The position numbers were made by a program, and so were the translations under genes. From Escherichia coli (lineage in GTDB: Bacteria; Pseudomonadota; Gammaproteobacteria; Enterobacterales; Enterobacteriaceae), in assembly GCF_029227855.1 (NCBI RefSeq), contig NZ_CP074356.1: a DNA stretch of 64,000 bases; one strand, written 5' to 3'. Shown here one piece after another: positions 15,204 to 43,022 of this stretch (the first letter of the stretch is position 1; each line of letters starts with the position of its first letter). Below the pieces are notes generated by a model, which ran no database searches, was not told the DNA's origin, and saw only the letters and a list, made by a program, of their open reading frames with translations.

Positions 15204-15533
15204 TTACGCCAGGTTAGCGTCGAGGAACTCTTTCAACTGACCTTTAGACAGTGCACCCACTTTGGTTGCCGCCACTTCACCGTTTTTGAACAGCAGCAGA
15301 GTCGGGATACCACGGATGCCATATTTCGGCGCAGTGCCAGGGTTTTGATCGATGTTCAGTTTTGCAACGGTCAGTTTGCCCTGATATTCGTCAGCGATTT
15401 CATCCAGAATCGGGGCGATCATTTTGCACGGACCGCACCACTCTGCCCAGAAATCGACGAGGATCGCCCCGTCCGCTTTGAGTACATCCGTGTCAAAACT
15501 GTCGTCAGTCAGGTGAATAATTTTATCGCTCAT
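15204..15533 (-). CDS. trxA: Thioredoxin 1
   Basis: Translation from ATG 15531-15533: [41 protein letters not shown], with the WCGPC active-site motif (109 aa). Confidence 0.97.
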
Positions 15534-15663
15534 ATATAACTCCACAGGAATAAGCCTGGCGTGTTGGTTTCGTTGTTGGTGTAACATTAACCAACTAAAG
15601 GTTGACTTTATTTCACCGGATACGCTTTCGTAAAGCAATAGTAAGCTGATATTCTACCACACT

Positions 15664-37899: not shown

Positions 37900-39441
<1,542 letters not shown>

Positions 39442-39622: not shown

Positions 39623-39650
39623 ATAATACGCTTTCCCGCTACAGAGTCAA
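39623..39650 (-). promoter_or_regulatory. rrnC P2 promoter
   Basis: Reverse strand reads ttgact-(17)-tattat (-35 = 39645-39650, -10 = 39623-39628), followed by a GC-rich discriminator. Confidence 0.75.
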
Positions 39651-39741
39651 GCATTTATTTTTGCTTTCTCTGTCGGAATTCTCAGGAGAACCCCGCTGAC
39701 CCGGCGGCGTGTTTGCCGTTGTTCCGTGTCAGTGGTGGCGC

Positions 39742-39792
39742 ATTATAGGGAGTTATTCCGGCCTGACAAGAGGAAATTTAAAATAATTTTCT
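39742..39792 (-). promoter_or_regulatory. rrnC P1 promoter with UP element
   Basis: Reverse strand reads ttgtca-(16)-tataat-gcgccaccac (-35 = 39764-39769, -10 = 39742-39747) with an AT-rich UP element at 39771-39792. Confidence 0.8.
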
Positions 39793-39921
39793 GACCGCGC
39801 ATTTTTTCAGCAAAAGCCCCGTTAATGTGCCATAAAACAAGCAATTTGCCGTTTTTGCAACCGTAATCACACTTCCTGGTGGCATACTAAGGAGGAATAA
39901 AAAGAAAAAGGAAGATTAGTA

Positions 39922-40614
39922 ATGCCTTTAAGCGCACAACAGTTAGCTGCACAGAAAAACCTTTCGTATGTTCTGGCTGAGAAGCTGGCGCAACGCATCT
40001 TAAAAGGTGAATATGAACCCGGCACCATTTTGCCTGGTGAGATTGAGCTGGGCGAGCAATTTGGAGTGAGTCGTACAGCGGTACGCGAAGCGGTCAAAAC
40101 GTTAACGGCAAAAGGGATGGTTTTACCGCGACCGCGAATTGGTACCCGGGTCATGCCACAATCAAACTGGAATTTTCTTGATCAGGAATTGCTTACCTGG
40201 TGGATGACAGAAGAGAACTTTCATCAGGTCATCGATCACTTTCTGGTTATGCGTATCTGTCTGGAGCCGCAAGCTTGCCTACTGGCTGCAACGGTTGGCA
40301 CCGCGGAACAGAAGGCGCATCTCAATACGTTAATGGCCGAAATGGCGGCATTAAAAGAGAACTTTCGCCGTGAACGCTGGATCGAAGTCGATATGGCCTG
40401 GCATGAGCATATCTATGAAATGAGCGCCAATCCGTTTTTGACCTCATTCGCCTCGCTATTCCATTCGGTTTATCACACTTACTTCACGTCAATTACCAGC
40501 GACACAGTGATAAAGCTGGATCTGCACCAGGCGATTGTCGATGCGATTGTCCAAAGCGATGGCGACGCGGCATTTAAAGCTTGTCAGGCGCTGCTACGCT
40601 CACCTGATAAGTGA
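39922..40614 (+). CDS. yieP: GntR/FadR-family transcriptional regulator
   Basis: 230-aa ORF MPLSAQQLAAQKNLSYVLAEKLAQRILKGEYEPGTILPGEIELGEQFGVSRTAVREAVKTL with an N-terminal GntR wHTH and FadR-like C-terminal domain. Confidence 0.9.
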   Translation: MPLSAQQLAAQKNLSYVLAEKLAQRILKGEYEPGTILPGEIELGEQFGVSRTAVREAVKTLTAKGMVLPRPRIGTRVMPQSNWNFLDQELLTWWMTEENFHQVIDHFLVMRICLEPQACLLAATVGTAEQKAHLNTLMAEMAALKENFRRERWIEVDMAWHEHIYEMSANPFLTSFASLFHSVYHTYFTSITSDTVIKLDLHQAIVDAIVQSDGDAAFKACQALLRSPDK

Positions 40615-40636
40615 CAACCCGATAACAGGACATTGA

Positions 40637-42064
40637 ATGAGCGATAAAAAGAAGCGCAGTATGGCGGGTTTGCCGTGGATCGCGGCGATGGCCTTCTTCA
40701 TGCAGGCACTTGATGCCACTATTCTGAATACCGCCTTACCCGCAATCGCTCATAGCCTTAATCGTTCTCCTCTCGCGATGCAATCAGCCATCATCAGTTA
40801 TACGCTGACGGTGGCGATGCTTATTCCGGTAAGCGGATGGCTAGCCGATCGCTTCGGTACGCGTCGCATTTTTACCCTTGCCGTGAGTCTGTTCACATTG
40901 GGTTCTCTGGCCTGCGCACTTTCTAATTCGCTACCACAGCTGGTTGTCTTCCGGGTTATTCAGGGGATAGGCGGCGCAATGATGATGCCTGTTGCTCGGC
41001 TGGCCTTACTGCGCGCTTATCCTCGTAATGAACTTCTTCCAGTATTGAATTTTGTCGCCATGCCGGGTCTGGTGGGGCCAATTTTAGGCCCCGTTCTTGG
41101 CGGCGTGCTGGTCACCTGGGCAACCTGGCACTGGATATTTTTAATCAATATCCCCATAGGTATTGCGGGCCTTCTTTACGCGCGCAAACATATGCCCAAT
41201 TTCACCACCGCACGACGCAGATTCGATATCACTGGCTTTTTGCTGTTTGGCCTCAGCCTTGTTCTCTTCTCAAGCGGAATAGAGCTATTCGGGGAAAGGA
41301 TTGTCGCCAGCTGGATTGCCTTGACGGTAATTGTCACCAGCATCGGGTTACTGCTTCTCTATATTCTCCATGCGCGACACACGCCAAACCCATTAATTTC
41401 ATTAGATTTATTTAAAACCCGCACTTTCTCGATCGGTATCGTAGGCAATATTGCAACCCGTCTGGGGACCGGTTGTGTACCGTTCCTTATGCCATTGATG
41501 TTACAGGTAGGATTTGGTTATCAGGCGTTTATTGCCGGCTGTATGATGGCACCGACAGCGTTAGGTTCCATTATTGCAAAATCGATGGTTACCCAAGTCT
41601 TACGTCGTCTGGGCTATCGCCATACGTTAGTGGGGATCACGGTGATTATTGGGCTAATGATCGCTCAGTTCTCTTTGCAATCACCGGCAATGGCGATATG
41701 GATGCTGATCTTGCCGTTGTTTATATTAGGGATGGCTATGTCGACGCAATTTACCGCGATGAATACCATCACACTTGCCGATCTGACCGATGACAACGCC
41801 AGCAGCGGTAACAGTGTTCTGGCGGTCACGCAGCAACTGTCGATTAGTTTAGGCGTTGCTGTAAGTGCGGCCGTCCTTCGCGTTTATGAAGGGATGGAAG
41901 GCACAACGACTGTCGAACAATTCCACTATACGTTTATCACGATGGGCATTATTACTGTTGCTTCAGCAGCAATGTTCATGCTTCTGAAAACAACCGATGG
42001 TAATAATTTGATCAAAAGACAGCGTAAATCTAAGCCGAACCGCGTTCCATCAGAATCGGAGTAA
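40637..42064 (+). CDS. hsrA: MFS transporter (DHA2-like, 14-TM class)
   Basis: 475-aa polytopic [41 protein letters not shown]; identified as HsrA/YieO by position and sequence. Confidence 0.88.
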
Positions 42065-43022
42065 GTTGTAATCGTTGTTGCTGAAGGGTCGGCTGGGTTA
42101 TCCGATGGATGAGTACATCAATCGCCAGCTCCCCCAGTTCATCTTTCGGTTGGTGGATAGTGGTTAATGGTGGCGTCATAAAGCTTGCCAGTTCGATATC
42201 GTCATAGCCAATCACCGCGATATCCTGCGGAACCTGTAACTCTGCCTGATATAACGCCTGGTAAACGCCAACAGCCATAGCGTCATTTCCGGTAAAGACG
42301 GCCTGAGGACGCAGCGGATGTGATAACAGTTGGCGCATGGCGTCAAACCCGCCGTTAAATTCAAAATCACCAGTGACTTCATAGCCATCAGGAATGTTGA
42401 GACCCGCACGTTTCATCGCCGCCCGATAACCTTCCAACCGCAGGCGCGCCGGAGTTTTATCCAGCGGACCGGTAATACAGGCGATACGGGTATGACCTTT
42501 ATCGATCAGATATTGCGTTGCTAAGTCTCCGCCCAGCAACGAGTTATCCTGAATAAGATCGCTGTCGCCATCGAACGGAGCCCAGTCCATCATCACAGTA
42601 GGCACTGTCGGATAACGTTGCATGATTTCACGCGAAGGTTGATGCGTTTCGGTGCACAGTAACAGCAAGCCATCAACGCGTTTTTGCATCAGCGTTTCCA
42701 GATTGCGATTCATCCGCTGTTCATCGCCTTCGGTATTGCAAAGGACGAGACTATAACCGCGTTCGAAGCAGCTGCGTTCAACGCCACGCACCAGTTCTGA
42801 ATAGAAAGGATTGGTACTGGCAGTGATCAACATGCCAATGGTATGTGTTTGATTGAGTTTGAGGCTACGCGCCAGGGCTGATGGCGCGTAATTGAGTTCT
42901 TTAATCGCCGCTTCAACTTTGGCGGTAATCGCTTCACTGACGAAGCGATCTTTATTGATAACGTGAGAAACTGTTGAGGTAGAAACGCCCGCCAGGCGGG
43001 CAACATCTTTCATTGTAGCCAA
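42030..43022 (-). CDS. rbsR: Ribose operon repressor (LacI family)
   Basis: ORF (M)[42 protein letters not shown] (330 codons); first codon is TTG at 43020-43022, alternative ATG at 43011-43013; 3' end overlaps hsrA by 35 nt. Confidence 0.9.

Follow-up and report, generated by a model that had tools for sequence, protein, structure and literature searches.

A yieP-hsrA operon that starts inside the upstream activating region of rrnC at a conserved distance, with a candidate Fis site that both promoters might share

The promoter of the Escherichia coli regulator gene yieP stands back to back with that of a ribosomal RNA operon, rrnC, raising the question of whether the two are simply neighbours or whether each bears on the other's activity. 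A first-pass annotation of the window considered here, a stretch of 64,000 nucleotides, had described yieP as a GntR-family regulator followed on the same strand by the MFS exporter hsrA. It suggested that the pair forms a regulator-transporter operon whose promoter region shares space with the Fis-binding upstream activating region of rrnC, and that crosstalk with rRNA promoter activation is plausible.

The gene identities are borne out by Pfam, NCBIfam and the MG1655 counterparts. The yieP coding sequence (39922..40614, + strand) is an open reading frame of 230 aa for a transcription factor of the GntR family, FadR subfamily. Residues 18-77 match the Pfam GntR family (PF00392, E = 4e-19, 68.5 bits vs a cutoff of 27), which constitutes the N-terminal winged-helix DNA-binding domain, and residues 108-226 match FCD (PF07729, E = 2.6e-21, 76.8 bits vs a cutoff of 24.3), the all-helical C-terminal effector domain. 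The best NCBIfam neighbours, NanR, LldR and PdhR, each score under their own cutoffs, implying that YieP is no equivalog of any named regulator. The hsrA coding sequence (40637..42064, + strand; open reading frame of 475 aa) specifies a putative efflux transporter of the MFS DHA2 type. It matches MFS_1 (PF07690) at 161 bits, is placed in the DHA2/EmrB efflux subfamily by TIGR00711 (263.3 vs a cutoff of 230.2), and matches the NCBIfam 'MdtD' subfamily NF007799 at 459 vs a cutoff of 426. Where transporters of this type have 14 transmembrane segments, a rough Kyte-Doolittle profile of HsrA shows 15 hydrophobic peaks that overlap one another, or roughly 12-14 segments. A literature search under the name yieO returned nothing on the function or substrate of HsrA. 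The MG1655 counterparts are b3755 (yieP) and b3754 (hsrA, annotated 'putative transporter'), adjoining rrsC. YieP is identical to its K-12 counterpart at 229 of 230 residues and occupies the same place between hsrA and rrsC, while HsrA differs from the K-12 protein at 2 residues. The 480-nt intergenic region differs from that of K-12 at 4 nt, none of which falls in a promoter or Fis-like element.

The two genes do appear to form the proposed operon. As annotated, hsrA follows yieP on the same strand after a spacer of 22 nt (40615..40636, + strand), in which the hsrA Shine-Dalgarno sequence AGGA (40627-40630) lies six nt 5' of the ATG; a promoter and terminator scan of this gap and its surroundings returned no match. 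Of 80 species, 75 have the two genes side by side; the distance between them there ranges from -4 to 23 nt, and in 15 of those 75 they overlap by 4 nt. The pair has also been described as an operon, with co-activation of hsrA presumed (PMC11340327). We consider that yieP and hsrA are probably co-transcribed and, in some species, probably translationally coupled.

On the opposite strand, rrsC (37900..39441, - strand; Rfam SSU_rRNA_bacteria, 1579.6 bits; MG1655 b3756) encodes 16S rRNA and is the first gene of rrnC. The rrnC P1 core promoter (39733..39769, - strand; 11 of 12 positions in our scan) has the same sequence as rrnB P1 and is composed of a -35 element TTGTCA (39769-39764), a -10 element TATAAT (39747-39742), the GC-rich discriminator GCGCCACC and an A at +1. 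Since the region equals rrnB P1 from -67 through +1, we take the +1 position, by analogy, to be 39733 and the UP element (-40 to -60) to be 39773..39793 (- strand), a sequence shared with rrnB P1 and rrnA P1. The P2 promoter (39623..39650, - strand; TTGACT, a 16-nt spacer and TATTAT) matches at 10 of 12 positions. At a permissive threshold, Rfam reported only Ysr197 over the rrn P1-P2 leader (83.9 bits vs a gathering score of 167). Fis has been found to bind a 500-bp rrnC promoter fragment, and in a fis mutant the activity of rrn promoter reporters is lowered to an extent that depends on the operon (PMC4696680).

The start of yieP transcription has been mapped by 5' RACE to 27 nt upstream of the ATG (PMC11340327), corresponding to the G at 39895 and a 5' UTR of 39895..39921 (+ strand), the same length as in K-12. 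An extended -10 element, TGgCATACT (39880..39888, + strand), with TG at -15/-14 and CATACT at -12 to -7, is recognized by its conservation, and its position fits this start: among 50 aligned enterobacterial species, 49 carry TGGCATACT unchanged and the remaining one has TGGCATAAT. Upstream of it we found no recognizable -35 element; TTGCAA (39855-39860) was rejected for this role as the spacer would be 22 bp. The lack of a -35 element is the reason that a generic sigma-70 scan did not detect the promoter. This extended -10 promoter is weak. The leader carries a conserved Shine-Dalgarno sequence, AAGGAA (39908-39913), and it is at this ribosome binding site that the FnrS sRNA pairs with yieP and represses its translation (PMC11340327). 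We considered TAAGGAGG (39888-39895) as the ribosome binding site of a translation start farther upstream but dismissed it, since it lies across the transcription start and lacks conservation. An Rfam search of the yieP leader at a permissive threshold returned no RNA elements. Separately, an antisense open reading frame of 95 aa spans 39867-40154, with nothing in favour of its being a real gene.

The two transcription units are divergent, with start points at 39895 and 39733, 162 bp apart; the yieP start thus corresponds to -162 of rrnC P1. On the MG1655 chromosome these two starts fall at 3,941,354 and 3,941,516. The yieP ATG lies 129 bp from the distal and 149 bp from the proximal edge of the UP element, in line with the 'about 150 bp' of the first-pass annotation. 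The core promoter of yieP, i.e. its -10 element and -35 position, occupies -127 to -155 of rrnC P1. At rrnB this span holds distal Fis sites, which puts the promoter of yieP within the rrnC upstream activating region, in its distal half. The published yieP start is accordingly not 'well clear' of that region, the arrangement that had been named as speaking against shared space. Outward from rrnC P1, the UP element is followed by Fis site I at -71 and by two Fis-like sites, at -102 and -122, the latter conserved. We are highly confident that transcription of the yieP-hsrA operon begins at 39895, driven by an extended -10 promoter devoid of a -35 element, inside the rrnC upstream activating region and in a fixed geometry. 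Textbooks and databases already contain the genes, the operon and the start of yieP transcription, so that the earlier observation as written adds little. What is new is the constant spacing between P1 and the yieP -10 element, the invariance of TGGCATACT and a conserved Fis-like 15-mer at 39848-39862.

The arrangement recurs throughout the enterobacteria. An rrn P1 signature is located 180-187 bp from the yieP ATG in 55/55 enterobacterial genomes, i.e. all those with enough upstream DNA, and such consistency indicates that the arrangement is not due to chance. In all 55 species the distance from rrnC P1 +1 to the yieP -10 element is 148-150 bp, while the distance from the -10 element to the ATG varies from 31 to 37 bp and that from P1 to the 16S gene from 265 to 306 bp. 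Within the constant stretch, the interval that separates the yieP -10 element from Fis site I measures 66-68 bp, and pairwise identity across it has a median of 0.55 and falls to 0.33 at the lowest. The retention of length to within 1 bp in a sequence that has diverged to 33-55% identity suggests a constraint of distance or helical phase acting on both ends, beyond dense packing.

To locate Fis sites we used a heuristic score (maximum 10) that ranked the three known rrnB sites, at -71, -102 and -143, highest. The predicted rrnC Fis site I (GCTGAAAAAATGCGC on the rrn strand; 39797..39811) is centred at -71 of P1, the position of rrnB site I, which the score also recovers; it reaches 9.0 and is called in 55/55 genomes. 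G39797 and C39811, at the +/-7 positions, and TTTTTC (39803-39808), an A-tract on the rrn strand, are invariant in 50 of 50 species. The Fis-like 15-mer at 39828..39842 (score 7.5), centred at -102 of rrnC P1 and -60 of yieP, coincides in position with rrnB Fis site II and is called at the same place in 34 of 55 genomes; its CATAAAA core is conserved, its ends only partly. The third element, the candidate 15-mer GCCGTTTTTGCAACC (39848..39862; MG1655 3,941,387-3,941,401), has its centre at -122 with respect to rrnC P1 and at -40 with respect to yieP. Its score is 7.1, a value that about 3 matches per 100 bp reach in this window, and the case for it therefore rests on conservation and not on motif strength: of 50 species, 49 keep G39848, 49 keep C39862 and 43-48 keep the T-tract, with a Fis-like call in 25 of 55 genomes. 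The calls at -71, -102 and -122, spaced 31 and 20 bp apart, all recur at the same positions in other genera. A match at -90 in E. coli (score 8.6) was not counted, its position not being conserved in other genera. Hirvonen et al. in 2001 reportedly obtained Fis footprints at seven rrn P1 promoters. In the Salmonella Fis regulon supplements, none of yieP, yieO and hsrA has an entry.

YieP acts as a repressor on yohJK, ykgE and rydC (thereby also on cfa) and as an activator on sdaC. Two observations are consistent with a coupling to growth. Its occupancy at sdaC is strongest in exponential phase in rich medium and weaker in minimal medium and in stationary phase (PMC8282354). YieP has also been counted at 158 copies per cell in glucose vs 261 in LB (table reprinted in PMC7567609). 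An operator scan of the intergenic region with the published YieP motif ATTTGTnnnACAAAT did not return a convincing site. The best YieP-like 15-mer (39801-39815) coincides in part with Fis site I and reaches 7.5/10, where about 0.12 matches per 260 bp would be expected by chance; the region of the yieP -10 element scores 5.5.

How, then, might the two promoters be related? Our tentative overall explanation, to which we give somewhat less than an even chance, is that a known operon lies in the rrnC upstream activating region and that both promoters share, through Fis, the conserved block located at -33 to -47 of yieP. The claim proper, that this block is bound by Fis and serves both promoters, with yieP-hsrA following Fis, is drawn from the sequence and is held with slightly less assurance still. 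The block would be the outermost member of a phased Fis array for rrnC P1 and, for a yieP promoter without a -35 element, would act as a promoter-proximal (class II-like) Fis site. The output of yieP-hsrA would then track Fis and rRNA synthesis, being high while cells grow rapidly and low once they are in stationary phase, so that during fast growth rydC and cfa would stay repressed and sdaC activated. Negative supercoiling sent backwards by a very active P1 may contribute. Fis sites that overlap the -35 region more commonly repress than activate, and the sign of any Fis effect on yieP is therefore uncertain. The conserved block could alternatively be an UP-like T-tract or a site for YieP self-activation. 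The spacing, constant to within 1 bp, and the conserved Fis-like site at -40 of yieP lend promoter coupling indirect support and do not amount to proof. Functional crosstalk between yieP and rrnC, through Fis or supercoiling, seems plausible, and a large effect on rrnC P1 from the yieP side is unlikely.

A stricter form of this idea, which we think rather unlikely, is that of a hard-wired divergent pair sharing one phased Fis array, in which the -122 site would double as the -40 activator site of yieP and tie the levels of YieP, as a metabolite-sensing regulator, and of its transporter HsrA to rRNA synthesis and growth phase. An extended version would have YieP, bound in the shared region, also feed back on rrnC P1. 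If the hard-wired pair were real, the spacing kept to within 1 bp across the Enterobacteriaceae would be the footprint of a shared Fis architecture.

The simplest competing explanation is that the promoters are tightly packed and independent, indels having been purged since every stretch serves one promoter or the other. We consider this rather unlikely, too, at about the level of the hard-wired pair. It gains from the fact that upstream Fis sites add little at rrnB P1, and from the divergent neighbours that also occur at rrnD (yrdA) and rrnE (purH), which make the arrangement of rrnC and yieP nothing special. The literature is compatible with independence as well: full-text searches found no paper linking yieP with Fis or rrnC and no published dependence of yieP on Fis or rrn, and the only inputs to yieP reported are YieP itself and FnrS (PMC11340327). 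It accounts poorly, however, for the interval of 66-68 bp, which holds its length in 55 species despite its low identity, whereas other non-coding intervals of the same loci vary by 6-40 bp. The spacing also speaks against an explanation by DNA topology, in which transcription from rrnC P1 and P2 would generate negative supercoils that help to open the weak yieP promoter (twin-domain model). The 162 bp between the divergent starts and the weakness of an extended -10 promoter without a -35 element would suit such a mechanism, and rrn operons do affect the expression of neighbouring reporters in a manner dependent on orientation (PMC9561378). In those experiments, however, divergent reporters near rrn were expressed at a lower, not a higher, level than tandem ones, and the effect was small (PMC9561378). 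Because supercoil coupling tolerates differences in spacing, it would leave the conservation to within 1 bp unexplained, and we judge topology as the main cause to be improbable.

The remaining alternatives give YieP or RNA polymerase the part that we tentatively assign to Fis. In one of them, the rrnC Fis array ends at -102 and is merely abutted by the yieP promoter, and the block at -33 to -47 is either an operator for YieP self-activation or an UP-like T-tract contacted by the alpha subunit of RNA polymerase. We hold this to be unlikely, more so than independence and somewhat less so than topology. YieP does activate its own promoter modestly (2.4-fold for yieP'-lacZ), and ChIP reads are raised upstream of yieP (PMC11340327). 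ATTTGC (39844-39849) shares 5/6 positions with the left half of atTTGTaTGAcaAAT, the published YieP motif, and GTTTTT at -44 to -39 is in the place of proximal UP subsites. The right YieP half-site is absent, however; the full 15-mer is outside the top YieP-like matches, the best of which is elsewhere, at 39801-39815; and the distance of exactly 14 bp between an invariant G and an invariant C agrees with the +/-7 rule of Fis. That best match leads to the last alternative, namely crosstalk in the reverse direction, with YieP at a site such as 39801-39815 competing with Fis, tuning rrnC P1 and providing a metabolite-responsive input to one rRNA operon. Although the overlap of the match with Fis site I and the reported ChIP signal would agree with it, we regard this as very improbable. 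One half-site of 39801-39815 is without the G of the conserved GT core, and the chance expectation of the match is not negligible. Its invariance, moreover, is fully explained by Fis site I, similar A-tract sites being present in rrnA, rrnG and rrnH. The numbers of molecules also weigh against it: YieP, at about 160-260 copies per cell, would face Fis at tens of thousands.

Comparison with known systems helps to place these features. The upstream activating region of rrnB P1 consists of an UP element and Fis sites I-III at -71, -102 and -143. The rrnC region resembles it in having Fis-like sites at -71 (strong) and -102. It departs from rrnB in that the sequence upstream of about -75 is found only at rrnC, the third Fis-like site is at -122 instead of -143, and the span of rrnB site III is filled by a divergent protein-coding -10 element, whereas murI, the gene upstream of rrnB, is co-directional. 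At proP P2, Fis is a promoter-proximal activator centred at -41; the putative Fis-like site of yieP at about -40 and a poor or absent -35 element are reminiscent of this promoter. Divergent promoter pairs coupled by transcription-driven supercoiling are exemplified by ilvY-ilvC and leu-500, which share with rrnC-yieP the close back-to-back arrangement with one very strong partner; the exact conservation of spacing is not known as a feature of those systems. Likewise, rrnD-yrdA and rrnE-purHD each pair an rrn P1 with a divergent protein-coding gene. The ATG of yrdA lies exactly 189 bp from rrnD P1 +1, as that of yieP does at rrnC, and a near-identical 11-mer is present upstream of yrdA, TTGCATACTAA against TGGCATACTAA, but at -113 to -123 of rrnD P1 and not at -147 to -157; purH is much farther from its P1. 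The study by Bianco et al. (2024; PMC11340327) concerns the same genes and reports the same start with a 27-nt leader, positive autoregulation, control by FnrS and conserved synteny beside the 16S gene. The overlap with the UP element and Fis sites, the extended -10 element and the conserved spacing are not discussed there.

The locus thus places the promoter of a regulator of membrane cyclopropanation (RydC, cfa), serine transport and organic-acid export within an rRNA upstream activating region. If the two promoters keep their spacing because they use Fis in common or are coupled in some other way, growth-rate signals would have a simple route to the YieP regulon, and the locus would be a natural case of a protein-coding promoter that exploits an rRNA upstream activating region.

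At the far end of the operon, rbsR (42030..43022, - strand; open reading frame, MG1655 b3753) is convergent to hsrA. The 3' ends of the two genes overlap by 35 nt (42030-42064), and an overlap of the same 35 nt in length is found in 39 of the 41 species measured.

The yieP (39922-40614) and hsrA (40637-42064) reading frames, both on the plus strand, diverge from an rRNA operon whose layout matches rrnC: Rfam places on the minus strand a 16S gene (39441-37900), one tRNA in the 16S-23S spacer, 23S, 5S and two further tRNAs, and the MG1655 annotation here, which runs in the reverse orientation, is rrsC and gltU. Of 5,426 complete E. coli genomes, 5,413 contain the 2.7-kb query sequence, many of them at 100% identity. 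Compared with K-12, one residue is changed in YieP and two in HsrA; the 480 nt that separate 16S from yieP hold four changes, none of them within the promoter or Fis-like elements. YieP carries GntR winged-helix and FCD effector domains, which make it a member of the FadR subfamily, and HsrA is an MFS protein that scores above the DHA2/EmrB subfamily cutoff.

The pair has been described as an operon conserved beside a 16S gene (PMC11340327), where co-transcription is presumed and a direct demonstration was not found. The spacer is 22 nt, with AGGA six nt upstream of the hsrA ATG, and no promoter-like or terminator-like match was found in or near it in E. coli. A single YieP scan of reference genomes yielded 80 loci, spread over about 25 genera of enterobacteria, and the two genes are adjacent in 75 of them, in agreement with the regulator-transporter operon proposed by the first-pass annotation. 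Of the other five, two lie on contigs that end too early for a decision. In the remaining three (L048, L049 and L059, from two species of Silvania and from Enterobacteriaceae strain RIT714), hsrA is absent from this place, with no homologue within up to 4 kb of downstream DNA; their yieP still lies beside the rrn P1 signature. The same absence has been reported for E. fergusonii (PMC11340327). In 15 species yieP and hsrA overlap by 4 nt, which is typical of translational coupling.

The start of yieP transcription, which 5' RACE put 27 nt ahead of the start codon (Bianco et al. 2024, PMC11340327), falls on G39895. CATACT (39883-39888) lies 7 nt upstream of it and, with the preceding TGg, forms an extended -10 element; the sequence offers no usable -35 element, and a generic promoter scan misses this promoter. 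According to the same study, yieP is positively autoregulated (2.4-fold) and its translation is repressed by FnrS. On the minus strand, a consensus scan placed rrnC P1 (-35 TTGTCA, 39769-39764; -10 TATAAT, 39747-39742) and P2 (39650-39623). When the seven MG1655 rrn upstream regions were aligned on the P1 -10, rrnC was identical to rrnB over -67 to +1 and to rrnA over -73 to +1, and further upstream each operon is unique; rrnC P1 is a standard rrn P1. By analogy to rrnB P1, we take its start to be A39733 and its UP element to be 39773-39793. The yieP ATG is then at -189, 129-149 bp from the UP element, and the earlier estimate of about 150 bp was right.

The two transcription starts are 162 bp apart, and the -10 and -35 positions of yieP span -127 to -155 of P1. 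The rrnB equivalent of this span holds Fis site III (-143), the outermost of the Fis sites I, II and III upstream of rrnB P1 (-71, -102 and -143), so that the yieP promoter lies, as the first-pass annotation had supposed, inside the equivalent of the rrn upstream activating region and not clear of it. What that annotation observed is borne out; its interpretation is supported in part, for the operon and the common space, and the crosstalk that it proposed is plausible. Both genes and their operon are already published, as are the start site and the neighbouring rRNA, and all are annotated in MG1655. The location of the yieP promoter within the rrnC upstream activating region is apparently undiscussed in the literature examined, as is a promoter-to-promoter distance fixed to ±1 bp across the family; the enterobacterial comparison, with its spacing and conserved blocks, is new here.

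Upstream of yieP, nearly all contigs of the 80 loci break off after 130-600 bp, as they would at an adjoining rRNA repeat. Wherever the DNA suffices, the rrn P1 signature is located 180-187 bp from the yieP ATG, and the 16S 5' end lies at 454-493 bp in the 13 loci that reach that far. The most striking result is the promoter-to-promoter spacing: P1 +1 and the first base of CATACT are separated by 148-150 bp in 55 of 55 genomes. In the same loci the yieP -10 to ATG distance is 31-37 bp, the yieP stop to hsrA start distance -4 to 23 nt, and the P1 +1 to 16S distance 265-306 bp. From Fis site I to the yieP -10, the 66-68 bp of sequence has a median pairwise identity of only 0.55 (minimum, 0.33). 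Such drift in sequence but not in length suggests that the two promoters are constrained in their distance or helical phase.

The -10 region itself (39880-39888) hardly varies, its non-consensus C at -12 and C at -8 being invariant in 49-50 of 50 species; TGGCATACT is present in 49 of the 50 aligned upstream regions and TGGCATAAT in one. This invariance exceeds the need of simple -10 function, suggesting that the promoter is selected to be weak and activator-dependent or that the 9-mer has a second reader. The 9-mer at 39880-39888 matches TGTCATACA, the core of a YieP site at sdaC (PMC8282354), at seven of nine positions, and the 9-mer GCATACTAA occurs only once in the 64-kb window.

Fis-like sites were evaluated by scoring 15-mers on the Fis core rule, which calls for G at -7, C at +7, Y at -4, A at -3, T at +3, R at +4 and an AT-rich centre. 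On rrnB, the best three matches coincide exactly with the known sites (-71, -102 and -143). The rrnC candidates are located at -71, -90, -102 and -122 of P1 (-91, -72, -60 and -40 of the yieP start), with scores of 9.0, 8.6, 7.5 and 7.1 out of 10, respectively. The window has about three scores of at least 7 in every 100 bp, so motif strength by itself makes a convincing case for the -71 site only. Across genomes, Fis-like calls recur at -71 in 55/55, at -102 in 34/55 and at -122 in 25/55, and the E. coli match at -90 does not recur in the others. In the 50-region alignment, the G and C ends and the central T-tract of site I (TTTTTC, 39803-39808) are invariant; the -122 block GCCGTTTTTGCAACC (39848-39862) keeps its G and its C, exactly 14 bp apart, in 49/50 regions each, together with its T-tract. 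Fis binds a 500-bp rrnC promoter fragment, and rrn promoter reporter activity decreases in a fis mutant to an operon-dependent extent (PMC4696680); an rrnC-specific value was not found.

We suppose that the conserved block at -33 to -47 of yieP may be a protein site replacing the missing -35, for which Fis is the best candidate. Fis is favoured because the block ends obey the ±7 G/C rule, because the 31- and 20-bp spacings from sites I and II keep the same DNA face, and because at proP P2 activation by Fis takes place from about -41. Fis bound there would make yieP-hsrA output follow Fis and rRNA synthesis, a tentative reading that we consider plausible, if somewhat short of probable. Whether Fis would activate or repress here is uncertain, since a Fis site placed over a -35 is often repressive. 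Occupancy of sdaC by YieP peaks in rich-medium exponential phase (PMC8282354), and the YieP copy number is 261 in LB versus 158 in glucose (table reprinted in PMC7567609); both agree with yieP-hsrA following Fis and rRNA synthesis, without proving it.

It is somewhat doubtful that the elements are independent and merely packed tightly. The block could also be a YieP or UP-like site instead of a Fis site, which would be compatible with the other readings and seems unlikely. Coupling of the two promoters through supercoiling appears slightly less likely still; rrn neighbourhood effects are small and orientation-dependent (PMC9561378). That YieP acts back on rrnC P1 is very improbable: the highest-scoring match to the YieP motif, which overlaps Fis site I, is weak.

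A similar geometry is found at rrnD, whose divergent neighbour yrdA has its start at a distance of exactly 189 bp from P1 +1, as yieP has at rrnC P1 (positions 328-530 of L008, the locus MG1655 3428720-3429520). Upstream of yrdA, TTGCATACTAA at -113 to -123 of rrnD P1 matches the yieP TGGCATACTAA at 10 of 11 positions.

Several minor features were observed. A perfect Shine-Dalgarno-like TAAGGAGG (39888-39895) straddles the yieP transcription start; it was rejected as a ribosome binding site, being unconserved outside Escherichia and being followed by no start codon ahead of the real ribosome binding site. A 95-aa ORF antisense to the yieP start region (39867-40154, minus strand) is without support as a gene. 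In most E. coli genomes PGAP names hsrA, as it is called in MG1655, 'mdtD: multidrug transporter subunit MdtD', because the protein scores 458.6 with the NF007799 subfamily model, whose cutoff is 426; the genuine mdtD is a member of the mdtABCD operon, and the automated name for 40637-42064 is thus misleading. The Rfam family Ysr197 ('Yersinia sRNA 197') has a match of 83.9 bits, short of its gathering score (167), over the promoter and leader region of rrnC P1-P2 (39563-39814, minus strand), which suggests that the family derives from a fragment of an rrn leader. Further minus-strand matches above the gathering score are Rev39_5p_UTR (30708-31000, 159.9 bits), the TrxA 5' UTR thermometer (15504-15603, 78.8 bits) and StyR-44 (37553-37661, 122.9 bits), the last just upstream of the 23S gene. 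Finally, hsrA and the minus-strand rbsR overlap tail-to-tail by 35 nt (42030-42064), leaving no terminator space between them for either gene, and the identical overlap is present in 39 of the 41 enterobacterial loci measured.
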